From the NCBI GenBank assembly GCA_964585065.1, contig CAZPCB010000001.1, forward strand, positions 80,034 to 144,033: a stretch of 64,000 nt of DNA, given 5' to 3'. Below the pieces are notes generated by a model. That model saw nothing but the letters and a program-made list of their open reading frames with translations. It was not told where the DNA came from and did no database searches. The stretch's first letter is position 1. Each line of letters begins with the position of its first letter. Shown in pieces: positions 2,901 through 16,398 of the stretch. The DNA is from an uncultured Candidatus Saccharibacteria bacterium. Its GTDB lineage: Bacteria > Patescibacteriota > Minisyncoccia > SW-4-49-11. The translations under genes and the position numbers were made by a program.

Positions 2901-4427
2901 TTATCTTGCATAGTCAATAATACGGGTTTCTCGTATTAAAGTTACTTTAATTTCACCAGGATATTTAAGCTCTTCTTCTATCTTAAGAGCAATTTTGCGA
3001 GCCATTTTTTTGGCTTGTATATCATTGATTTTATATGGTGTCACAAATACGCGAATCTCACGGCCAGCATTAATGGCATAACTTTTATCTACTCCATAAA
3101 AAGCATTAGTAATAGCCTCCAATTCCCCCAGTCTCTTGATATAATTATCCACAGAATCACGTCGAGCCCCAGGTCGAGAAGCTGACAGGGCATCCGCTGC
3201 CTGTACAATGCGAGATTCTAGGCTCTCATACGGATATTCCTCATGATGAGACTGCATAGCCTTGATTACCTCTTCTTTAATACCATATTTACTGAGTACG
3301 GTGCGTCCAATTTCCACATGAGTACCCTCAACCTCATGATCGAGAGCCTTCCCAATATCATGAAAAAGACCTCCCATTTTTGCAATCATCACATTAGCCC
3401 CGAGTTCTGCCGCAATAGCTCCCGCCAAATGAGCAACTTCCACACTATGCATAAGTACATTTTGTCCATAACTAGTTCGGAATTGCAATCGTCCGAGTAT
3501 ATAGGTGAGTTTAGGATCTATACCCGTAATACCGGTATCATATAGAGCTGCTTCACCAGCCTCTTTAATCTTTTGTTGTACTAATTCTTTTGATTTAATG
3601 ACAAATTCTTCAATACGAGCTGGTTGTATACGACCATCTTCAATCAAAGCCTCTAGAGCAAGCTTAGCAATATGCCTCCGTATAGGGTCAAAACAAGATA
3701 AAACAATACTATCAGGACTATCATCAATAATAACCTGTACTCCTGTTGCATTCTCGAGAGCCCGTATATTACGCCCCTCTTTTCCAATAATACGTCCCTT
3801 TACCTCTTCGCTGTCTATTGCCACACTTGCAGTATTAAATTCAGCAGATTGACCTTGAGCATATTTTTGCATAGCAAGAACCATAATATTCTTGGCTTTT
3901 TGTTCCAATTGATTATGCCTAATTCCCTCTAAACGCTCTATTTGTAATAATAATTCTTCATGAGAAGTCTCTTCTACCTTTTCGAGAAGCTCAGACTTAG
4001 CTTGTTCGGTATTAAGTCCAGCAATATGCCCAAGTTCAGTGATTTGTTTTTGTTTGAGCTCTTCAACCTCTTGATACAAATCCTTAATTCTCTCCCCCTT
4101 TGTCTTGAGTTCCAATCTATGATTTTCTAATTCCTGTACTTGTTGTTCTAAATCCTTTTCCCTTCTCAAAACACTTTCCTCAAGGAGAACCGCTGTTTTC
4201 CTAATTTCTGAGGCTTCGGCTCTGGCCTTATCTTTTAGTATTTCAGCCTCTTGTTCGGCTTCTTTTTTGAGTTTTTTAGATTCTTCTTCGAATATTGCTT
4301 GTAGCGATTGAATTTTAGCTTCTTTTGAATTGATTGATCTTCTGACAATGATTAATCTGAGACCATATCCTATACCAGTACCTATTATTAAGCTTGAAGT
4401 CAACCACAATAATGAAATTGTAGTCAT
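2901..4427 (-). CDS. rny: Ribonuclease Y.
   Basis: N-terminal TM helix, coiled-coil region, KH domain 'GRIIGKEGRNIRALENATG' and HD domain 'HSVEVAHLAGAIAAELG...LFHDIGKA'. Confidence 0.9.
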   Translation of the reverse strand: MTTISLLWLTSSLIIGTGIGYGLRLIIVRRSINSKEAKIQSLQAIFEEESKKLKKEAEQEAEILKDKARAEASEIRKTAVLLEESVLRREKDLEQQVQELENHRLELKTKGERIKDLYQEVEELKQKQITELGHIAGLNTEQAKSELLEKVEETSHEELLLQIERLEGIRHNQLEQKAKNIMVLAMQKYAQGQSAEFNTASVAIDSEEVKGRIIGKEGRNIRALENATGVQVIIDDSPDSIVLSCFDPIRRHIAKLALEALIEDGRIQPARIEEFVIKSKELVQQKIKEAGEAALYDTGITGIDPKLTYILGRLQFRTSYGQNVLMHSVEVAHLAGAIAAELGANVMIAKMGGLFHDIGKALDHEVEGTHVEIGRTVLSKYGIKEEVIKAMQSHHEEYPYESLESRIVQAADALSASRPGARRDSVDNYIKRLGELEAITNAFYGVDKSYAINAGREIRVFVTPYKINDIQAKKMARKIALKIEEELKYPGEIKVTLIRETRIIDYAR

Positions 4428-6016: not shown

Positions 6017-6080
6017 GTATTCTGTCCTCCCTTGGAGGAGGTGGATTGAGCTAATTCCCCTCTCGAGGGGTGTACAGCTT
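6017..6080. repeat. GC-rich REP-like structured repeat, copy 1.
   Basis: 'ttctgtcctcccttggaggaggtggattgagctaattcccctctcgaggggtgta' shares its core with 6447-6520. It contains the local hairpin CCTCC-cttg-GGAGG and the CCCCT-ctcg-AGGGG hairpin. Confidence 0.45.
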
Positions 6081-6192
6081 TGCTGGACGGGGTTGGGAGT
6101 ATTCTGTCCCTAAAGTTACTCCTCCACCTGTCTGATTGACAGTAAGTATAAATTTTGATATTTTACTTATGTCCACATATTGATAATAGCAA

Positions 6193-6378
6193 ATGACCAA
6201 AACAATAACCCCTCCTCATCCAGATCACGACAAAACAGCTGATCAATCATCTACTCAATTCAAAGAAGATGTCGGTATCGAAGAAAATCCAGATTATAAA
6301 GACTGGGAAGAATGGGAAGAACTAGAAAAAGAACTTAAAGAGGGTAAATACGATCTAAGCGTAATGCTTATGAATTAG
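6193..6378 (+). CDS. Hypothetical small acidic protein (61 aa).
   Basis: ORF bracketed by the two REP-like repeats and followed by a terminator. 'DYKDWEEWEELEKELKEGKYD'. Confidence 0.35.
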   Translation: MTKTITPPHPDHDKTADQSSTQFKEDVGIEENPDYKDWEEWEELEKELKEGKYDLSVMLMN

Positions 6379-6397
6379 AAATTCAACAAAACAACCA

Positions 6398-6427
6398 ACC
6401 CCGGCACATTGTCGGGGTTTTTATTTA
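6398..6427 (+). terminator. Rho-independent terminator.
   Basis: 'ccccggcacattgtcggggtttttattt'. Confidence 0.45.
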
Positions 6428-6446
6428 CCCTAAAATTTACAATGTT

Positions 6447-6520
6447 TTCTGTCCTCCCTTGGGGGAGGTGGCACGGAGTGCCGGAGGTGGATTGAGCTAA
6501 AATTCCCCTCTCGAGAGGTT
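6447..6520. repeat. GC-rich REP-like structured repeat, copy 2, with an inserted hairpin.
   Basis: 'ttctgtcctcccttgggggaggtggcacggagtgccggaggtggattgagctaaaattcccctctcgagagg'. The conserved 18-mer GGAGGTGGATTGAGCTAA is shared with copy 1. Confidence 0.45.
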
Positions 6521-6596
6521 GTATCTTTGATGAAGGGGGGGGATTTTACCTACCTCAAAAACTCCTTCAAAACAGCTGGATCACTCTCGTATATTC

Positions 6597-7597: not shown

Positions 7598-7682
7598 CCC
7601 CTTTTAGTACGGTGTACTTGTCTGTTGCGAGGAGCATTCGCTCGAAAATAGTTTCCGCTATTCGTCCTTTGACGAGGCTTTG
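7598..7682. repeat. 85-bp direct repeat, copy A (about 80% identical to 8746-8831).
   Basis: 'ccccttttagtacggtgtacttgtctgttgcgaggagcattcgctcgaaaatagtttc...gaggctttg'. Confidence 0.5.
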
Positions 7683-7962
7683 TATTTGCCTATTACATTT
7701 GAAAGCTTTGTGGAAAATGGTCTGTGCAAATTTTGCACTAACCACTTTTTAATGACATTATATCCCCAACCTTCTTTTTGAGCTATTGCAAAAAATGCAA
7801 CAACTGAATCTTCTCTAGCTTATCCACATTTGCAATATGCATTTTTTACATATTGCTTTTTAATCAAACTCATACCTATCGTATACTTGACAAATAGCAA
7901 ATATTATGTTACTATAAGGTTACAAATGAGTGGACTAGGAATACCTGGGCCACTCATTTTTA

Positions 7963-8703
7963 TTACGGAAATTCTTTATATCCATATCCTTTCACTCTAT
8001 TCCCCTTACGTCTAAATTTTGACTTTAATATAGAAAAAGGAGGCTTATTTTTATACTGATCTTTATCTAAACAAAATCTACTAATTGGATATGCTACAAG
8101 ATCAGCAATTTGATGACCATTAATATTTTTTGTTTTACCAATAAACTCAATTTTTTGAATATGTTTTTCAAAATCATCTTGAGATACATACCGTTTTCGC
8201 CCTTATCGAAAAACATTATACACATTTATTAAGTCATTATTAGACTTATTATCTCTCGCTTCAATTGAGATAATCCCCGTACCATTATGCTCTTGAAGAA
8301 ATTTAATAAATCTTTCAATAATAAACGAAAATGAAAGTTCATATGGATCACTTGGATCATTATATATAGAAGTTAATTTATCTTTACGAATACAACTAGA
8401 GATAATGGTATAATCTAAATCCTGCATTAATATATTCATATCTTCTATAAAAACTTTTCTTTTCAAAGGGTTGAGTAAAGATTTAAAATCATTTTTTGCC
8501 TTACGAATTTCATAAGAATGTAATATGGTATTTTTATTATTAAAATGATTAATTTTAAGCTTATTTACTTTAGCAATAACTTGCTCCTCATAATATACTT
8601 TTTCAAAAATACACCCTACCAAAGTAAAAATAGGATATTGAATATCATACTTTACTAAGTTATGATCTCCAGATTCATCTAAAAATATAATATATTCTTT
8701 CAT
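7963..8703 (-). pseudogene. DUF3800-family gene interrupted by a single in-frame TAA at 8203-8205. N-terminal part is 8203-8703; in-frame continuation is 7966-8202.
   Basis: N-terminus 'MKEYIIFLDESGDH' (DESG motif). After the TAA the same frame continues for 79 aa: 'GRKRYVSQDDFEKHIQKIEFIGKTKNINGHQIADLVAYPISRFCLDKDQYKNKPPF...' with the DUF3800-like QxADL motif. The combined length of about 246 aa is family-typical. Confidence 0.55.
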
Positions 8704-8745: not shown

Positions 8746-8831
8746 CCCCCCTTTTAGAACGGTATAATTCTCTGTAGCGAGGAGCATTTGCTCGAAAATA
8801 GTTTCGTGACCAGCCGCTTAACCAGGCTTTG
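8746..8831. repeat. 85-bp direct repeat, copy B.
   Basis: 'ccccccttttagaacggtataattctctgtagcgaggagcatttgctcgaaaatagtttc...caggctttg'. Confidence 0.5.
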
Positions 8832-8886
8832 AGTGAATTTAATTGGACTTTACTTTTTGACATAAGGAATTTTTAGTCATATACTA

Positions 8887-8915
8887 TTGACAAAATTAAG
8901 AAAATGTGCTACTAT
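8887..8915 (+). promoter_or_regulatory. Sigma70-type consensus promoter.
   Basis: -35 TTGACA (8887-8892), 17-nt spacer, -10 TACTAT (8910-8915), followed by the ATG at 8942. Confidence 0.5.
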
Positions 8916-8941
8916 TTTTCCTGAAACTGATCTTGCTATCC

Positions 8942-9178
8942 ATGGCATTTCAATCCTCAACGATTGTAAAGCGTCACGTACCAGTAACTCACCCCACCCC
9001 TCTCGAAGCGGAAGCCGAGTACATCGCAGCCAATCAAGAAAGGTGTGAGGTCGCTGATGACCTCGATGCAGAGCAAGAAGTACCGGAGCCGATTGATGAT
9101 AGACCTGAAGATTGGGCTGCCTTTGAAAGAGATATCGAGCAAGCCCAATACGACCTTGAAGGATTATTCCTTGAGTGA
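8942..9178 (+). CDS. Small, highly acidic hypothetical protein (78 aa) on a GC-rich, probably horizontally acquired segment.
   Basis: 'MAFQSSTIVKRHV...EAEAEYIAANQERCEVADDLDAEQEVPEPIDDRPEDWAAFERDIEQAQYDLEGLFLE'. Local GC is far above the roughly 30% background. Flanked by a consensus promoter and a strong terminator. Confidence 0.45.
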   Translation: MAFQSSTIVKRHVPVTHPTPLEAEAEYIAANQERCEVADDLDAEQEVPEPIDDRPEDWAAFERDIEQAQYDLEGLFLE

Positions 9179-9199
9179 CACCATCGCCCATAACCTCCA

Positions 9200-9231
9200 T
9201 CCCCCGACACCTTGCCGGGGGATTTTTTTTA
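9200..9231 (+). terminator. Strong rho-independent terminator.
   Basis: 'cccccgacaccttgccggggg' followed by 8 T. Confidence 0.6.
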
Positions 9232-9471
9232 TTACTTAAACAATTTTGAAAACCAGCCGAATAAACTTGGGACTTTGCCCTTGCTCAGTTCTCTGGTATG
9301 TTTGAAAATAGGTTTATTATACCCTATATTATATTTGATTTTTCGCTTAACTCGAGAAGGGCTGAGAGATTGAATTGCAGAAATTCCCGTAGCCTTCTTT
9401 ATCCTACGCTTCAGCTTTGTCACTCCGAGCAATGTTTTGAGAGATGGTTTGCGATAGCGGAAGAGTTTCAT
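9232..9471 (-). CDS. Hypothetical small basic protein (79 aa).
   Basis: Lys/Arg-rich ORF, last gene of the minus-strand operon downstream of the 335-aa gene. Confidence 0.3.
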   Translation of the reverse strand: MKLFRYRKPSLKTLLGVTKLKRRIKKATGISAIQSLSPSRVKRKIKYNIGYNKPIFKHTRELSKGKVPSLFGWFSKLFK

Positions 9472-9771: not shown

Positions 9772-10779
9772 TTATTTAGATATCAAATCAACAAACCTCC
9801 TCACTTTCCCTTTTTCCCAGTCCATAATTTTGGCATATTTCCCCTTATGTTTAAGTGGTCGATTATATTTACATCCTTCACATTCATATTTTTCTATTTT
9901 CTCAGGAGTATATCCATCAATTCTATTTTCTGAGGGTATTATAGTGCTTTCATTATGGTTACAACTCATTGGGATTACATATCTCAAGCCATCCATTTGA
10001 AAAATATTCCAGCTAATTATAATAGCAAATTTTTCTTGTAACTCATTATTTGGTTTTTTCTTGAATTTATCTTCATAATAATCGATAAATGAGTATAAAA
10101 GATTTTCTCTTGCAAGCAAAATATTATCTCCCTGCCATTCATAGCCATAACTTGCTTTAAAAGCTTCTTCTGCCCAATGCAACCAATCTTTTTCATCTTC
10201 GGTATATTTGGATACCACTTGTAATTTAATATCTAAAAAACCTACTCGATTCTTAATCGGTATCAAGTGTCCTTCTTGAGCTGTAGGGTCATATCTACTC
10301 ACAATATACGGAGCCTCTCCACAAGTAATTTCTAGCTTTAATTCTTTGATATATTTTTGCCAATTATGCTTAGTTATGGAATAAATATCCACTGATTTAT
10401 TCATTTGCTTCACTACTGTAAGTGGAGTAAAGACTTCAGCTTTATCTTTGGTACGATATAATTGTTCTTCTTTACTTTTAGAGGCACGAGGTTGAATCAG
10501 GAGATTACCTTTTCCAGTTATTAACTCTGGCTTTATAGGTTTTGTCACACCAAATTTCTTTTTATCAAATTTTTGACTTTCATAAGCATCTGTAGCCCAG
10601 ATAATTCTGCTTTTTGTTATATGGCCTTTTTCAGAATTACTAAGCTTTTCTGTTCGCTGTTTTCTCAGAAGGTTGATAATTTTTTCACTGGGATAATGGA
10701 GTAATAATATATCCAAAATAATCCTCTTGTCTCGAAGAGTATTTTCTAAGATATCAATATTTTTTTGTGCCCCATTCAT
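9772..10779 (-). CDS. Hypothetical 335-aa partner of the helicase-methyltransferase fusion. Carries a degenerate methyltransferase N-terminal motif but no NPPY.
   Basis: Start is 17 nt after the stop of the 1433-aa ORF. 'AEVFTPLTVVKQMNKSV...LEITCGEAPYIV' resembles gamma-class MTase motifs X and I, and echoes 'QIFTPKHVVKMMVNSL' in the big protein. No catalytic (D/N)PP(Y/F). Confidence 0.45.
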   Translation of the reverse strand: MNGAQKNIDILENTLRDKRIILDILLLHYPSEKIINLLRKQRTEKLSNSEKGHITKSRIIWATDAYESQKFDKKKFGVTKPIKPELITGKGNLLIQPRASKSKEEQLYRTKDKAEVFTPLTVVKQMNKSVDIYSITKHNWQKYIKELKLEITCGEAPYIVSRYDPTAQEGHLIPIKNRVGFLDIKLQVVSKYTEDEKDWLHWAEEAFKASYGYEWQGDNILLARENLLYSFIDYYEDKFKKKPNNELQEKFAIIISWNIFQMDGLRYVIPMSCNHNESTIIPSENRIDGYTPEKIEKYECEGCKYNRPLKHKGKYAKIMDWEKGKVRRFVDLISK

Positions 10780-10796
10780 AAGTTTAATATCACTTA

Positions 10797-13700
10797 CTAT
10801 AGGTGGTTTTCAATAAAATCAATTTCTTTTTGGTCTAGGCCATATTTTTTGTATAGCTGCTGATCAATTTCAGGAATAGACTTTGACCAATCTATATCTG
10901 ATTGAGAAGTAAAATCTTGATCTAATATTACATATCCAAAAGAAGATCTTCTATTAGGTTCTTGTAATAATAAAAAAGCAAAAAAATTAGTTTGTGAGTA
11001 TTTGACAAAATTTTCACAATCTTCATCATCATCTGACATAAATAATGAAAGTTTACTCCTTCCAAATGCCGAACCACTAGGAAGTATCTCTATAAGTTCT
11101 TTAGCTCTCAACTTAACATTCTCAATCGTCGGCTTACCCGAAACAAAAGTTTTCTTCGGGTAAGCCGACGTAACAACAACTTTATACTGATCTATATACT
11201 GTTGCCCCTTATTAATTACATTTCTATCTGCCCAAAAAAGCTTAGCTCTTCCTGAAGATCCTGATTTATCGTTAGTGAGTAACTGAATTGCATTATCCCA
11301 ATCTGATTTTTTAAAAGATACTTTTGTAGGGTTCTTCTCTACAAAGTCAGATTCAATTCCAAATACACCTTTTTTAATCCTACTGTTTAATTTTGTACCT
11401 GTTGTTAATTTTTTCCAACTTGAAAAGAAATAAGGATTAGGAGTGAGAGACTGCCAATTTTTTACTTCCACTTCTGCTACATCGTCTGTATATATACGAT
11501 TAGAATACCGATATTTTTCGTGATATTTTGTCATATCACGAAGCACAATAGAAACACCTGCTGATAAGTTAACACTATTCCCAAATATTGGAACAGGGTC
11601 TCTATCCGTTCTATACCAAGCTCTTTTATCAGAGGTACCTTCGTATGCATTTATTAATACCGTATGCCCATCGCTTAATATTTTTTTACCTATCCCTCCC
11701 AGTCTTTCAGGTGCATCAAACCAGCCTCCAAAAGGATAAATAAGACATATATTTTGTGAAATGTTATCAGCCTGTTCCTGGAAATAATAGTATATCCAAT
11801 TTGAATTACCTTGTGTCTGTGTTTGAGATTTACCTACAGTTTCCTGATACGGGGGATTTCCTACTATTGCTGTGAATTTCATATGTTTATCTAGATTAAA
11901 TTGTTCATAGAGTTTGTCTTGGAGAGAAAGACCTTCATCATCTTTCGCATAAGGGATAAGATCTAATTGAGCAAAGTTTTTGGTACTGATGATATGAGCA
12001 TCATCAAAACCAAAGATAAGTGAATTAGTTATAGCGTGCAATACACCAGTTGGGGCAAGTCCATATACCTGATTTTCTAAAATATGTTTTACACAGTCTA
12101 TATCACTACCATATTGACTCCGTGTATTAGTAAAGAGTTTTTTTACAATTTCTGTAATATATAATCCTGACTTCATATACAAATCAATGAAAGTTGTATC
12201 TGTTCGCTTGAATATATCTGGATTATGTTCTTCTAGACTATTTACCATCATTTTAACTACATGTTTAGGAGTAAAAATCTGGTTAGTAGCTTGTGGGGGG
12301 ATAAACTCAAAAATATCTTGTGTACGGTCTTGTAGATAATAATCTGAAAGTTCTGAACGTTTATGCAAAAACTCTTGTACTGATGCATTGAACACATTTT
12401 CATTAAATAGCCCTTCAAAACGACGGCTTTCAATTTGACTAGTTTCTTCATTTTTTGTTTCATATTCAAAGCCATCTCGGAGCTGTCTAAACTCCTCTTT
12501 AGTTATGCTGGTAAGTTCCTGAAATACTTCTTCTGGGATATTCTCGTCAAAGTTATGTAATGTTGTTTTAGAGTCACCATAAGCCATCAAAAAACTGGGT
12601 ATTGTTCTGGAGAATCCTCTGAGACGGTCTCTTGTTTTCTCTTCTTCTGTTTTATCTTTAGGGGCGGGCTTTTCATCTGGTTTTTCTGGCTGATGATAAT
12701 CTGGATCTCCTGGTTGCGGAACTGGATCCGGTATTTTTGCTACAACTTTGGGAAGTTTTTTCTCTAATTCTTTTATAATGACATTGGCCGCATCAGAAGG
12801 TATATTTTTATTACGGAGTTCAGTTGCTACATTGCTTTTAATTGTAGAGACTTCTTTTTCCTCTTCGCTCCCAATTTCTATATATTGCTTATCACCTAAT
12901 AAACCATTAGTAGTGTTAATTATAATATCTTCATTTATATGAATATTATTTTCTTTATCAACCCATATTCGTGGTTTATTTGAGACTTTATTTTTAGTAC
13001 TATCACCTTGTTTACCTCCTTCGTCAGGTGTCATTTTATTAATGATATCCATCACACTTTGAGGAGCTCCAAAAATACCACTAATACTTTCAAATAAGCG
13101 ATTGCTCATAAATCCTCGATTGACTACTTCCTCTGTAATAAGTTTCAAAGGAAGAGTTAATACCTGATTGGCATCGAGTTGTTGCATTCTCCCTTCATCA
13201 TCCTCTGCATACACAAATAATAAATTAATGAGTTCTTGAACTTTAGCTTCTCGTGTGATATTTGTTTTAGCTCCACTTCTATCCGCCATTTCTGCCAAAG
13301 TTTGCAGTATACGATCTGGGGCAAAGTCAAAAACATAACAGTTTTCTTTTGTGTATACTTCTCCTCCGCTCGTTGCAACTTCAAATGGGTTCTGGGCACG
13401 AAAAGCAGTCTGCATATATAATGAAGGGCTCTTACCCCCTTGTAACATCAGCACAGCTGTCCATGAAGGAACAGTAACACCTGTTGTTAACTGACCACAA
13501 GATAACGTAATGGTTTTAGTTTCTAGTGGATGCTTCTCATTATTATGTCCATTTATTGCTGCCCGCACTTCTGCCAGAGCAGAGTTAGTGAGTCTATCTT
13601 CATCACCTTCGCCTGCTGCTAAAATAATAGTATAATCTTGAAAGAAAGGGTGTTCTTGGAGTAATTGCTTCATCAACTTACTTTGAGGTACACCAGGGAG

Positions 13701-15098
13701 TAACCAGAAAGTATGTCGAAGCGATTCGAGAGAGTCTCTATTTGAAAATGGGTATTGATAATTTGGATTAGCTAAATTATCTAAGAAAAGCCTCACTTTA
13801 TCTTCATATACAAATGTATCTTTTCCATTAACTTTGATAACCCTAAAGAATTCTCCTAACTCAAACGCATATTCACTGCCTTCATTTTTTGCTTCTTCTG
13901 CTTTAATTTGCAATGCTCGAGATAATTGATAGGTAAAGATATTGAGCTTTGGTAATGGAGCATATGGATTATTACCATCCTCTATATTCCACTCTGCTTT
14001 AGCATTCTGCTCATCTGTATATGACCAGTTATATATTTGTTTACTATTAAATTTATTACTTGCAAGAGCTTTGAAGGGTGTGCCCGATAAATGGAGTGCG
14101 AAATCATAATTAACAGCCTCTAGAACGCTAAATGAGTGTCTTGTATCTACTCCTTCATGAGACTCATCAATAATTAACACATCCCATTTTATTCCATCTC
14201 CATCTTCTGATTTAAATATCCACTGATTTTTTCTTTTATATGCACTCGCATCCTCTTTTTTGCCTTTTATATCTTGAAGAGATATAAAGTGTACATAATT
14301 TGAATAAATTCCACCCTGACTAAGTTGTTCTTCACGAGTAAGAATACTATCTGAACCAGGAATATCTCTTAGATTTTTTCGAACACTTTCACTAGCAGTA
14401 AATATCCATCTATGTTTATTATCATTTTGACCCGTGTACTTAAAATCAAATTTTTGAAAATCGGTATACCAGCTATCTGCTATAGCTGGTCTATTAGTAA
14501 TAATCAGAACTTTTTTTGCTTGAATATGTTGAGCAAATGAATAGGCCGTAAGAGTTTTCCCAAAACGTGGTTTAGCATTCCATAAAAACTCTGGCTGAAC
14601 ATTGCTATCTACCAATGTATTCTCATAATAAGCAGTGGTTACTTCAACTGCCTGTTGCTGTTCAGTACGTAGTGTAAAGTCAGTAATAATACCCTCTAGA
14701 TTAATTTTGGCGTTTAATTTATAGTTCTCAATGGTTTCAATGATAATGTCTAGATCTGTCTTAAACCATTCTGCCTTTCGATTGGTTAGAGGGTTGATAG
14801 TTTCTTCTCGTTCAATTCCTAATTTTTCTAGTTCTCGATGAATATCATGGTCAGAAAATATTTTCTTGTCGTTTGTGACTGCATTAGTAGTATATAAAAC
14901 TTCATAAGCTACATTACTTGCCTCATGCTGATCAATAATTCTTAGATTATGTCCTTCTCCTATAATATTTAATTTCTTTGTTTGTCCAACCTTTAACCAA
15001 CCCTCATGTGATACGACGTCCAAATGCTTATATACATATATAACTTTTTCTTCAAAAGCTGAGATATTAATATTATCTAAATTATCTGTGGCATTCAT
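10797..15098 (-). CDS. 1433-aa single-polypeptide fusion: N-terminal T5orf172 (GIY-YIG-like) domain, SF2 helicase (DExH), gamma-class N6-adenine DNA methyltransferase, and a C-terminal putative target-recognition region. Resembles Type ISP restriction-modification enzymes.
   Basis: T5orf172: 'VIYVYKHLDVVSHEGWLKVGQTKK...KAEWFKTDLDIIIETIENY'. Helicase: 'KPRFGKTLTAYSFAQ' (Walker A), 'VLIIDESHEG' (motif II), 'LSGTPF' (III), 'QLTTGVTVPSWTAVLMLQ' (V), 'MQTAFRAQNP' (VI). MTase: 'QIFTPKHVVKMMVNSL' (motif X), 'FIDLYMKSGLYI' (degenerate motif I), 'AIVGNPPYQ' (motif IV). Confidence 0.7.
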   Translation of the reverse strand: MNATDNLDNINISAFEEKVIYVYKHLDVVSHEGWLKVGQTKKLNIIGEGHNLRIIDQHEASNVAYEVLYTTNAVTNDKKIFSDHDIHRELEKLGIEREETINPLTNRKAEWFKTDLDIIIETIENYKLNAKINLEGIITDFTLRTEQQQAVEVTTAYYENTLVDSNVQPEFLWNAKPRFGKTLTAYSFAQHIQAKKVLIITNRPAIADSWYTDFQKFDFKYTGQNDNKHRWIFTASESVRKNLRDIPGSDSILTREEQLSQGGIYSNYVHFISLQDIKGKKEDASAYKRKNQWIFKSEDGDGIKWDVLIIDESHEGVDTRHSFSVLEAVNYDFALHLSGTPFKALASNKFNSKQIYNWSYTDEQNAKAEWNIEDGNNPYAPLPKLNIFTYQLSRALQIKAEEAKNEGSEYAFELGEFFRVIKVNGKDTFVYEDKVRLFLDNLANPNYQYPFSNRDSLESLRHTFWLLPGVPQSKLMKQLLQEHPFFQDYTIILAAGEGDEDRLTNSALAEVRAAINGHNNEKHPLETKTITLSCGQLTTGVTVPSWTAVLMLQGGKSPSLYMQTAFRAQNPFEVATSGGEVYTKENCYVFDFAPDRILQTLAEMADRSGAKTNITREAKVQELINLLFVYAEDDEGRMQQLDANQVLTLPLKLITEEVVNRGFMSNRLFESISGIFGAPQSVMDIINKMTPDEGGKQGDSTKNKVSNKPRIWVDKENNIHINEDIIINTTNGLLGDKQYIEIGSEEEKEVSTIKSNVATELRNKNIPSDAANVIIKELEKKLPKVVAKIPDPVPQPGDPDYHQPEKPDEKPAPKDKTEEEKTRDRLRGFSRTIPSFLMAYGDSKTTLHNFDENIPEEVFQELTSITKEEFRQLRDGFEYETKNEETSQIESRRFEGLFNENVFNASVQEFLHKRSELSDYYLQDRTQDIFEFIPPQATNQIFTPKHVVKMMVNSLEEHNPDIFKRTDTTFIDLYMKSGLYITEIVKKLFTNTRSQYGSDIDCVKHILENQVYGLAPTGVLHAITNSLIFGFDDAHIISTKNFAQLDLIPYAKDDEGLSLQDKLYEQFNLDKHMKFTAIVGNPPYQETVGKSQTQTQGNSNWIYYYFQEQADNISQNICLIYPFGGWFDAPERLGGIGKKILSDGHTVLINAYEGTSDKRAWYRTDRDPVPIFGNSVNLSAGVSIVLRDMTKYHEKYRYSNRIYTDDVAEVEVKNWQSLTPNPYFFSSWKKLTTGTKLNSRIKKGVFGIESDFVEKNPTKVSFKKSDWDNAIQLLTNDKSGSSGRAKLFWADRNVINKGQQYIDQYKVVVTSAYPKKTFVSGKPTIENVKLRAKELIEILPSGSAFGRSKLSLFMSDDDEDCENFVKYSQTNFFAFLLLQEPNRRSSFGYVILDQDFTSQSDIDWSKSIPEIDQQLYKKYGLDQKEIDFIENHL

Positions 15099-15319
15099 AT
15101 TAAAATTATATTTAAATATATATCTAGAGCTAGGTTTAACTATTTACTCCTATTATACCACATTTTTCCCTTTTTGGGTAGTGATTATCTCATAAAAAAT
15201 ATATACTATACAGAATTATCTATGTAATGTGTAGTGATTATTGTATATCCAGTAAATCTTTTAACTTTTTACCTTTATATTGCCAATAGGCTGCTCCTTG
15301 ATAGGCTCCACTTTTATTG

Positions 15320-15520
15320 CTATTGCCTTTTTGTTGATATATTTTGAGGGTTAATGGGGATAGTTTGAAAACTTGCAAAGAATCTCTTTAATCCTGAGAC
15401 ATTGTAGTATCCATTTGATTCTAGATTTCTCATCCTTTCTTGATAATTTTGACTGCCTGTTTGTCCTATTTTTATTAGTCCATCGACTACTGTTGTCATT
15501 ATATAGACTATTCCTTTCAT
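15320..15520 (-). CDS. Mini T5orf172 (GIY-YIG-like) ORF of 66 aa, possibly a fragment or decoy copy of the N-terminal domain of the adjacent fusion protein.
   Basis: 'IVYIMTTVVDGLIKIGQTGSQNYQERMRNLESNGY' matches the T5orf172 core (hydrophobic-Y-hydrophobic ... KIGxT ... R). It is shorter than the roughly 90-aa domain and lacks the EWF end. Confidence 0.4.
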   Translation of the reverse strand: MKGIVYIMTTVVDGLIKIGQTGSQNYQERMRNLESNGYYNVSGLKRFFASFQTIPINPQNISTKRQ

Positions 15521-15589: not shown

Positions 15590-15617
15590 TGAAAAAGCCC
15601 TCCTGAAACAGGGGGCT
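15590..15617 (-). terminator. Rho-independent terminator on the minus strand.
   Basis: Minus strand 'gcccccuguuucaggagggcuuuuuc'. Confidence 0.5.
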
Positions 15618-15943
15618 TGAGTAATGGGTGGTAAAAAATCAGACGCGGACTGCCGAGTGGCGGATACCGGGTGACTCCTCATCCATCTCTTGACACATAC
15701 GCTTGGCATCTTCATCAGAGGGAATGAGGATCGGAGATGATCCACGACCTGTCACTCCTGTGAAAAGTGACTGCCAATGAATGACATACTGAAACATGTC
15801 TAGTAACAAAGAAAGTGAACTTTACATATTATATATACCACATTTTTGCCATTTTGTCAATAGTTAATGACTACTAAATCAACATCTTATTCCACCCTGT
15901 CAGGTAAAAACCTGCCACCTCGCCCCGCCCGAGGGAGAGAGGG

Positions 15944-15976
15944 GAATTTAAAAAGCCACCTTTTGAGGGGTGGCTT
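15944..15976 (-). terminator. Rho-independent terminator on the minus strand, immediately after the 137-aa gene.
   Basis: Minus strand 'agccaccccucaaaagguggcuuuuuaaauu'. Confidence 0.5.
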
Positions 15977-15984
15977 GGGGCAGG

Positions 15985-16398
15985 CTATATCAGAACATTC
16001 ATAATATCTGATTGAGCTCTGTCTAATAAAATTTTATAAACTTTTTCAATCTTATCGGGTAGATGAGACATCCTCTTTACATTATTACGACTGAATGCTG
16101 TAATGTCAAATAAATCACTATCCTTTTCTTGCTTATAATTATCGTATAACTCATTCAGAGTTATGATGATATCATCTACATCCTCATTGATATCTTCATT
16201 TTCAATATACTTTCTCAAATTTACTATTAATGTTATATATTGTAATAATTCGTCTAATCCATTTAGAATAATTCTGAAGAAATCGTTTTTCTCAAAAGAT
16301 TCTGATCTTATAGAGGGATGAGGAATTATTAATTGAGAGAATTCCTCTCGAAGAGTAATAATGCTTTGAACCTGAGTTGAAGAGATTAAAGAGCTCAT
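15985..16398 (-). CDS. Hypothetical protein (137 aa).
   Basis: ORF followed by a terminator. No recognisable family. Confidence 0.4.
   Translation of the reverse strand: MSSLISSTQVQSIITLREEFSQLIIPHPSIRSESFEKNDFFRIILNGLDELLQYITLIVNLRKYIENEDINEDVDDIIITLNELYDNYKQEKDSDLFDITAFSRNNVKRMSHLPDKIEKVYKILLDRAQSDIMNVLI

Follow-up and report, generated by a model that had tools for sequence, protein, structure and literature searches.

Background

Several small, highly acidic, helical proteins serve as DNA mimics, among them Ocr, T7 gp5.9 and DMP12 (PMC4872106, PMC9836394, PMC3643605). Ocr holds 34 acidic and 6 basic residues in its 116 amino acids (aa) (PMC4872106), gp5.9 is a coiled-coil dimer that displays Asp and Glu (PMC9836394), DMP12 binds the basic protein HU (PMC3643605), and DMP12 and DMP19 of Neisseria, both encoded in the chromosome, mimic DNA and bind to HU or to a transcription factor (PMC3643605, PMC3384305). 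Here we describe a gene that recalls these systems, encoded in a GC-rich patch at 8887-9231 of a 64,000-nucleotide (nt) stretch of contig CAZPCB010000001.1 from an uncultured Candidatus Saccharibacteria bacterium; this whole stretch is called the window, and coordinates are those of the window unless a related locus (L002 and so on) is named. The gene encodes a 78-aa acidic protein and is a real, orphan, fast-shuffling mini-gene, not an ordinary housekeeping gene, that marks the borders of defence islands in a lineage of the Candidate Phyla Radiation (CPR). Its position at the island border in seven contexts and the reassortment of its modules, as read from aligned alleles, are new results.

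The Patescibacteria (CPR) are uncultured episymbionts with reduced genomes, whose mobile DNA and defence biology are little known. The window comes from such a bacterium, as its RNase Y shares 87% identity with that of an uncultured metagenome-assembled genome (MAG) and no more than 55% with those of many MAGs of Parcubacteria, Paceibacterota and Patescibacteria. Anti-restriction genes normally live in sequences of the phage, plasmid or IMG/VR type, and the DNA mimics T7 gp5.9 and lambda Gam block RecBCD. An earlier note, made from the letters of this DNA alone, had taken the patch for a horizontally acquired island and had thought a regulatory or anti-defence role plausible, small acidic proteins beside such loci often being DNA mimics, Ocr- or ArdA-like anti-restriction proteins or antitoxins; its claims are taken up below where the results bear on them.

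A mosaic of exchangeable modules

The strain at L002 is very close to that of the window, its RNase Y (window 2901-4427), DEAD-box helicase and DUF3800 protein being 98%, 98.6% and 98.8% identical to their counterparts. Between the same two loci a basic 79-aa protein encoded next to the acidic one is 96% identical, and the acidic protein only 62%. In DNA sequence, identity is 97-100% in the flanks and falls to 45-62% in the transcribed region outside a core at 9038-9111; the two alleles have a synonymous divergence (dS) of 0.86. Block-wise comparison of eleven alleles divides the transcribed region, all on the plus strand, into a variable 5' module (8920-9037; at least five allele types), which covers the leader and residues 1-32, that is, the predicted disordered N-terminus and the start of helix 1; the conserved core (9038-9111), which encodes residues ~33-57, (W/C)EVADDLDAEQE...PIDDRPE, and in which the recombination breakpoints lie; and a variable 3' module (9112-9198; at least three allele types), which covers the C-terminal helix and the 3' untranslated region. 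The core holds a 6-base-pair (bp) hairpin-forming repeat, GAGGTC-N6-GACCTC, and a 36-nt stretch of it is identical at synonymous sites in most alleles.

The window allele has an identity of 0.95 to L087 in the 5' module and 0.57 in the 3' module, and of 0.45 and 0.99, respectively, to L095; L087 and L002 share 0.53 of the 5' module and 0.89 of the 3' module, and the 5' module of the window has an identity of 0.92 to L098 and 0.50 to L002. These opposite patterns of identity indicate a two-module mosaic, whose modules reassort independently; by this comparison of alleles, recombination across the conserved core swaps them between strains. For a protein caught in an arms race of interactions, one would expect just this pattern of shuffled modules and of divergent alleles that persist for a long time. 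A diversity-generating retroelement, a retron or a CRISPR-like source was considered and rejected, the pattern being a block-wise mosaic, and the sequences and gene tables read, in which no dedicated search was made, showed no reverse transcriptase, repeat array or A-specific mutation.

A self-contained transcription unit

The modules are framed by constant signals. The cassette promoter (8884-8915, plus strand; consensus CTATTGACAAAATTAnGnAAATGTnCTAyTAT; sequence TTGACAAAATnAnnnAAATnTGCTAT) combines a perfect -35 element, a conserved 17-nt spacer and a TG extended -10 element. The earlier note had called the core of this promoter, TTGACA-17-TACTAT at 8887-8915, perfect, which holds for the -35 element; the -10 element agrees with TATAAT at just 4 of 6 positions. 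In all ten other alleles the promoter block is 75-100% identical to that of the window, the promoter core is the same or nearly so in every allele fetched, and within the window the core has no further match at up to 3 mismatches (0.00 expected). The left edge of the cassette lies ~15-20 nt upstream of the promoter block (AGTTA). A promoter-like site in tandem with the first, TTGACA-17-TATACT (8857-8885, plus strand), agrees with the consensus at 11 of 12 positions and outscores the site at 8887-8915; it is missing from most other contexts, and is a lineage-specific feature outside the conserved cassette.

The promoter is followed by a short leader (8916-8941, plus strand), which lacks a Shine-Dalgarno sequence in the window allele (type A), the type B alleles (L002, L095, L101) having AAGGAG 4-6 nt ahead of the ATG, and by the coding sequence (8942-9178, plus strand), which runs from an ATG at 8942 to a stop codon at 9176-9178. 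The unit closes with the strong intrinsic terminator that had been reported earlier (9199-9231, plus strand), formed by a stem at 9199-9223 (-14.9 kcal/mol, z -2.8) and a U8 run to 9230; a simple scan missed it. The terminator is kept across alleles in two sequence variants and adjoins the stop codon of the convergent 79-aa gene. Read in the minus-strand sense its hairpin has no U-tract, so that the restriction operon on that strand may read through. The unit is autonomous, since its promoter and terminator are the same in contexts that otherwise have nothing in common upstream, the region ahead of CTATTGACA being wholly different in L087, L091, L006 and L088: 8884-9231 is a monocistronic mini-gene with its own conserved strong promoter and intrinsic terminator. 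Judging by these signals, its transcription is probably strong.

The compositional contrast that first drew attention to the patch is real. The GC content is 0.49-0.51 across 8900-9200 and 0.22-0.33 in the flanks, and the richest 300-nt segment of the 64 kb, whose overall GC content is 0.34, begins at 8921 with 0.513 (mean of such segments 0.340, sd 0.040), equal to the tRNA cluster. In the 78-aa open reading frame (ORF) the GC content at first codon positions (GC1) is 0.70 and that at third positions (GC3) 0.42, above the 0.16-0.35 found at third positions in the 13 window genes outside the convergent pair. The high GC1 follows from a protein rich in D, E, A and P, and much of the GC excess of the patch is amino-acid composition.

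The acidic protein and its family

Across the alleles, the minimum numbers of changes at codon positions 1, 2 and 3 are 58, 48 and 85. Pairwise ratios of nonsynonymous to synonymous substitution (dN/dS) lie between 0.17 and 0.65, well under 1 in all pairs; the insertions and deletions are in frame, and the reading frame is intact in 10 of the 11 alleles. The acidic stretch contains the invariant motif (W/C)EVADDLDAEQE and the C-terminal helix the motif DWxxFExxI...LxGL, and the most distant members, P0018 and P0019, in which the length of the linker differs greatly, retain WEVADDLD and DW..FE..I...L.GL.PE. Since dN/dS is below 1 and the motifs are kept in distant members despite these differences in linker length, the protein itself is under selection, and we regard the 78-codon ORF, on the pattern of substitution, as a protein-coding gene under purifying selection. 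Two other frames were rejected. A GTG start at 8906, which would give a 90-aa version, falls inside the -10 element. Long antisense frames are expected opposite codons rich in GAN and GCN, and an antisense 107-aa ORF (8877-9200, minus strand), the second codon position of which is the most variable sense position and which is closed in several alleles, is a by-product.

The protein (which includes the peptide EVADDLDAEQEVPEPIDDRPEDWAAFER) is as acidic as had been claimed, with 21 D and E residues (27%) and 5 K and R residues, a net charge of -16 and an isoelectric point (pI) of 4.06. Its family comprises 23 proteins among 5.8 billion sequences, and a profile search of 1.84 billion cluster representatives returned seven family members only. 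The 20 full-length members (68-114 aa) have net charges of -7 to -21 and pI values of 4.05-4.96; acidity is a trait of the whole family, which in size and charge resembles the DNA-mimic class. A scan with DNA patterns gave two matches: L094, which is a true locus, and L093, a chance match from a genome of high GC content. Scans of genome and metagenome contigs with peptide patterns found none among the matches listed, a weak negative since chance acidic matches dominate there.

AlphaFold models of two different alleles have pLDDT values of 72 and 66 and pTM values of 0.29 and 0.24, and agree in the predicted architecture, in which ~19 disordered N-terminal residues lead into a long acidic helix, followed by an acidic linker and then the C-terminal helix, with ~40% of the 78-aa protein predicted to be disordered. 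Of these parts the C-terminal helix is modelled with the highest confidence (pLDDT 81-88 over the two models, and 82-88 for the helix at 55-76); it is also amphipathic, its hydrophobic moment of 1.10 being matched by 5% of shuffles.

No known family accounts for this protein. Pfam gave no match at E<=0.01 and only a spurious DUF963 at E<=10; PHROG, PADLOC and NCBIfam gave no family match; a profile search against PDB sequences returned chance matches only (best E 0.8); and Foldseek found nothing in the PDB and nothing significant among the BFVD viral models. Matches to phrog_8924 (E 0.037), DUF963 (Pfam, E 0.09) and a chorismate mutase (PDB, E 0.8) were treated as noise. Domain searches showed no ribbon-helix-helix (RHH), helix-turn-helix (HTH), AbrB or Phd DNA-binding domain. 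Membership of the Ocr (PF08684) or ArdA (PF07275) families, as once proposed, finds no sequence or fold similarity in Pfam, PDB sequences or Foldseek.

Position at the borders of defence islands

The gene sits on the edge of a variable island in each of seven independent contexts, and in five of these seven the island holds restriction enzymes, of different types (IIG/ISP-like, I-like, III and IV). In the window the downstream side carries a Type IIG/ISP-like enzyme and a methyltransferase (MTase); in L006 a Type I-like pair, N6_Mtase-Eco57I-Methylase_S and HSDR-ResIII; in L091 and L088 a kinase-like gene, a KAP NTPase (L091 only), an M78 peptidase and T5orf172 and Eco57I proteins; in L094 a KAP NTPase and a Type III-like pair of ResIII and N6_N4 MTase, with def-fmt on the opposite side; in L101 GmrSD-HNH and an EcoRI-type methylase; and in L087 an HTH-SocA gene. 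The upstream neighbours vary as well, being DUF3800, RhuM(-Fic), PemK, or fmt with GC-rich hairpin repeats after it. The gene thus stays at the island edge while the adjacent restriction systems are replaced, and its recurrence over seven contexts makes the association with restriction and defence islands, which the earlier note had seen at one locus, reproducible and independent of the type of restriction. The contigs bearing the gene carry core genes (RNase Y, DEAD-box helicase, def, fmt), and the islands hold genes of the kind found in prophages and integrative and conjugative elements (ICEs), namely Bro-N, RhuM, Fic, PemK and an ImmA-like M78 peptidase. PemK, which lies upstream in L088 and L091, was considered as a cognate toxin and is unlikely in that role, as a small contig-cut ORF that overlaps it may be PemK's own antitoxin; this ORF, which overlaps the 5' end of PemK in L091 and has no family assignment, could be that antitoxin.

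A possible role as a nucleic-acid mimic

How such a protein might act can be approached by analogy. The reading that we tentatively prefer, while regarding it as far from assured, is that the 78-aa protein is a polyanionic competitor that works as nucleic-acid mimics do. It would act stoichiometrically: the amphipathic C-terminal helix would dock or dimerise, and the acidic segment would then occupy a basic DNA- or RNA-binding surface of a partner. The likeliest partners would be restriction or defence enzymes, encoded either in the neighbouring island or on an incoming element, with the convergent basic 79-aa protein as a second candidate. By analogy with the described mimics, such a role fits the charge, the helicity and the location.

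Several observations weigh against this reading. If the protein inhibited the restriction enzymes of its own cell, a strong constitutive promoter would defeat the purpose of those enzymes unless it were regulated, and the family is without homology or experimental tie to any inhibitor. No homolog of the protein exists among 50,697 phage records, 72,556 plasmids and IMG/VR. Helix 1 is not amphipathic, which together with the modest AlphaFold confidence leaves a rigid DNA-shaped surface of the Ocr/ArdA kind without support from the models. The second candidate partner is absent in 5 of 12 distinct allele contexts (L006, L088, L091, L094 and L101), and where present it does not co-vary with the type of acidic allele. 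Mosaic alleles could arise from a position in a recombination hot spot alone. Finally, the gene is dispensable in one lineage, to judge from a 5-nt deletion that splits it into ORFs of 52 and 41 aa in L088 (3872-4115) and also in L089 and L090; since the same lesion occurs on three contigs from three samples, it marks a real pseudogene in that lineage.

A wider version of the mimic reading, which we consider distinctly unlikely, is that Patescibacteria carry an undescribed class of chromosomal mini-gene cassettes with a fixed strong promoter, a fixed terminator and a swappable small ORF, some in tandem arrays at the borders of defence islands, of which the acidic member would be a new and structurally distinct nucleic-acid mimic that tunes or counters restriction, its alleles being held by frequency-dependent selection. 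The mimic might then protect a new island or the chromosome during exchange, or block a DNA-binding protein of phage or host.

A possible recombination hot spot and other mini-cassettes

Of the competing explanations, the one that survives best is that a recombination hot spot carries the gene as a passenger, or that the gene is an insulator module, the protein being minor or unrelated to defence. The promoter, the terminator and GC-rich hairpins would then be homology anchors for the swapping of modules, and the strong convergent transcription unit would shield its neighbours from read-through. In favour, the promoter and terminator are far better conserved than the ORF, the hairpin has no U-tract on the minus strand, the gene is frameshifted in one lineage, and there are further cassettes. 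In L002 the terminator and the 3' end of the 79-aa gene occur as direct duplicates, with a cassette that has a 74-aa ORF inserted between the copies, and in L101 three cassettes stand in tandem, with two related 60-aa ORFs flanking the acidic gene. These B-type cassettes (L002 9708-10045; L101 9647-9885 and 10452-10690) share their promoter and terminator with the acidic gene, and their proteins, of 60-74 aa, are ~52% identical to one another (…RLTLRQQKLADxLL…LPxxxEQQRI…). A ribbon-helix-helix reading of these proteins (RLTLRQQKLAD...) was made by eye only and set aside, Pfam giving no match.

The window itself has three mini-units at the module junctions of its island, beside hairpins that resemble repetitive extragenic palindromic (REP) units. 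The second mini-cassette (6136-6420, plus strand) has a TTGACA extended -10 promoter, a 61-aa acidic ORF (6193-6378; MTKTITPPHPDHD...DWEEWEELEKELKEGKYDLSVMLMN) with 3 homologs only among the 5.8 billion proteins, and a terminator of -15.7 kcal/mol, and is flanked by GC-rich hairpin repeats; at this site the strain of L002 has RhuM and Bro-N genes. Alignment of the 61-aa ORF with the C-terminal helix of the 78-aa family by hhalign gives a probability of 56% and an E of 1.1e-4 over 22 columns, and the match of the ORF to the family's hidden Markov model is not significant (E 1.3), which makes kinship a suggestive lead. The third mini-cassette (15590-15860, minus strand; GC 0.45) lies just upstream of the restriction operon, with a promoter (TTGACAAAATGGCAAAAATGTGGTATATA) near the cassette promoter in sequence, a 52-aa ORF (15797-15642; MFQYVIHWQS...) that has no homolog in the fetched loci, and a terminator hairpin. 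The REP-like GC-rich hairpin units (GTATTCTGTCCTCCCTTGGAGGAGGTGG, ATTCCCCTCTYGAGGGGTG...) lie at 6017-6110, 6444-6540 and 15900-15980 in the window, and at 9555-9660 in L002, 11590-11880 in L094 and 60-230 in L100; they cluster at island module junctions and beside cassettes in several genomes.

A hot spot that carries its protein along does not sit well with the constraint on that protein, however. Every pair of alleles has a dN/dS well under 1, the protein motifs persist even in distant members with another linker length, and acidity is preserved in every allele. We hold this explanation to be unlikely.

A few further features lie near the cassettes. Exactly 1000 bp upstream of the promoter at 8887, another TTGACA-17-TACTAT extended -10 promoter (7887-7965, plus strand) is followed almost immediately by a 9-bp hairpin (ATGAGTGG...CCACTCAT) and a T-run; it could represent a very small transcription unit, or a cassette that has lost its content. 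Two direct copies of a 58-nt repeat, 90% identical, occur at 7598-7655 and 8748-8805, just upstream (in the minus sense) of the promoters and starts of a 306-aa ORF and the DUF3800 gene; the repeat holds a GAGC-N4-GCTC hairpin, is also found upstream of the 306-aa ORF in L002, and its copies differ conservatively in one reading frame. It may have a regulatory role or be what is left of a gene. A 137-aa acidic ORF (15985-16398, minus strand), another small acidic protein of the island edge, lies at the far end and gave only weak, sub-threshold matches to the Thoeris inhibitor Tad5 (Pfam, E 0.056) and to CARF (PADLOC, E 9e-4), which are probably noise.

The convergent basic protein and the restriction operon

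As had been observed before, the mini-gene converges on a restriction operon; on the minus strand lie the 79-aa ORF, a 91-aa ORF, the MTase and a 1433-aa enzyme. The 79-aa ORF (9232-9471, minus strand) is very basic (net charge +22, pI 11.7) and has no family match; the 335-aa MTase (9772-10779, minus strand; PADLOC MTase_II, E 6e-85) is of Type II, and the 1433-aa enzyme (10797-15098, minus strand) is a T5orf172-ResIII-Eco57I protein that PADLOC places with Type IIG enzymes. The N-terminal domain of this enzyme is T5orf172 (GIY-YIG-like), with ResIII and Eco57I methylase domains after it; Type ISP enzymes have an Mrr-type nuclease at the N-terminal position. Upstream of the 1433-aa gene, a 59-codon remnant (15230-15499, minus strand) shows a weak T5orf172 match (E 0.08) and then stop codons.

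The charges of the two convergent proteins, -16 and +22, are opposite, and the acidic protein might neutralise the basic one, as antitoxins, immunity proteins or chaperones do. The binding of HU by DMP12 offers a precedent (PMC3643605). The basic gene adjoins the acidic gene in 7 of the 12 distinct contexts, the terminator of the latter abutting its stop codon, and both genes have a GC3 unusually high for the genome (0.42 for the acidic gene and 0.41 for the basic gene). Against this, the two genes are not co-transcribed, and the five contexts that lack the basic gene leave the acidic protein without its supposed partner. Nor do the two proteins evolve together: the basic protein is 90-97% identical beside acidic alleles that are just 62-78% identical, and L087 and L097 have similar acidic alleles, yet basic proteins 90% and 60% identical to that of the window. 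Neither protein matches a toxin or antitoxin family. We consider a neutralising function rather improbable. The 79-aa gene seems to serve as a junction at which recombination takes place: in L002 (9457-9558) copies of its 3' end stand on either side of the inserted cassette, and L087 has a diverged second copy of the gene (1739-1915).

RNA gene or foreign gene

A GC-rich island with a promoter and a terminator in an AT-rich genome is usually a structured RNA, and an RNA gene was the first suspicion here. It was rejected on the evidence of Rfam, ARAGORN, folding and codon-like substitutions. Rfam 15 has no match at the gathering threshold around the patch, its matches in the window being five tRNAs elsewhere, and at E<=10 only sub-threshold terminator look-alikes (RAGATH-25 and others) appear around the patch; ARAGORN finds no transfer-messenger RNA (tmRNA); and the whole transcript folds no better than its shuffles (z -1.37), the core hairpin GAGGTC-N6-GACCTC reaching z -1.85. 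A broader version would make the transcript a structured, antisense-acting or dual-function small RNA, with the ORF incidental or secondary, and would draw on the strong promoter and terminator, on the core stretch that is identical at synonymous sites and carries the hairpin, and on the lack of a Shine-Dalgarno sequence in the window allele. The outer thirds of the transcript, however, are 45-60% identical between strains, yet keep the frame, the in-frame indels and the third-position bias, and the distant L100 alters a Leu codon of the core at two positions synonymously (CTC>TTG), also within an arm of the hairpin. On balance such an RNA is very improbable.

Least credible of all is the recent import, from a GC-rich donor or mobile element, of a classical anti-restriction gene of the Ocr/ArdA type, because the features that speak for it (a GC content of 0.49 and a GC3 above that of the host, and the Bro-N, RhuM, PemK and T5orf172 genes in the islands of relatives) are outweighed by the missing homologs in phages, plasmids and IMG/VR, by the missing matches in Pfam, PHROG, PADLOC and PDB sequences and folds, by a GC1 that the amino-acid content explains, by relatives that all belong to the same AT-rich clade, and by a site of the same TTGACA and extended -10 style 48 nt upstream of the DEAD-box helicase ORF. 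All relatives fall within a narrow set of AT-rich patescibacterial genomes, in which the loci have a GC content of 0.32-0.37 and the genes themselves are each ~50% GC; no GC-rich or mobile donor is detectable for the patch, and the claim of horizontal acquisition from such a donor is not borne out. The search of phage and plasmid databases that the earlier note had proposed was run, and the homologs turned out to be chromosomal, which that note had named as grounds for abandoning its idea, though the islands carry genes of prophage and ICE type. The comparison of loci points to old divergent alleles that are exchanged within the clade, rather than to import from outside.

Significance and comparison with known systems

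The 78-aa protein is an easily synthesised candidate for a new restriction-modulating or anti-defence family, and its gene marks a recombination hot spot, which could account for the exchange of defence islands among these bacteria. Even if its function is ordinary, the locus shows that a GC-rich patch with a promoter and a terminator in an AT-rich genome need not be an RNA gene or foreign.

If the 78-aa protein is a nucleic-acid mimic, as we tentatively suggest, its closest counterparts differ from it in instructive ways. Like Ocr (T7 gp0.3) and ArdA, it is small, very acidic and helical by prediction, is encoded beside or against restriction systems, and has its own strong promoter. Unlike them it is shorter, with some two fifths (~40%) of its length predicted to be disordered, and is encoded in the chromosome of the owner of the restriction genes and not on a phage, plasmid or ICE; moreover, the neighbours of its gene include Type IIG, III and IV systems, which to our knowledge are not the main targets of Ocr and ArdA. 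With T7 gp5.9 and lambda Gam it shares a very small size, acidity, a predicted alpha-helical structure and an amphipathic helix that may plausibly dimerise, but it has no homology to them, no RecBCD context and no phage to carry it.

The resemblance to Type II antitoxins and to the immunity proteins of polymorphic toxins lies in a small, acidic, fast-evolving and modular protein in islands rich in toxin-antitoxin and defence genes; unlike Type II antitoxins, the gene is monocistronic with its own promoter and terminator, has no consistently adjacent toxin, and encodes no detected DNA-binding domain. It likewise differs from the controller (C) proteins of restriction-modification systems, having no HTH domain and lying convergent to the operon and outside it. 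By analogy, then, the 78-aa protein works at best like Ocr, gp5.9, Gam and DMP12, and is not a member of those families. With DMP12 and DMP19 it has in common that it is a chromosomal acidic protein, whose usual neighbour here is a very basic protein of 79 aa; there is no homology between them, and as a partner the 79-aa protein is a candidate only. Whereas the DMPs are conserved, housekeeping-like genes, the gene described here is a mosaic that resides at the edges of islands.

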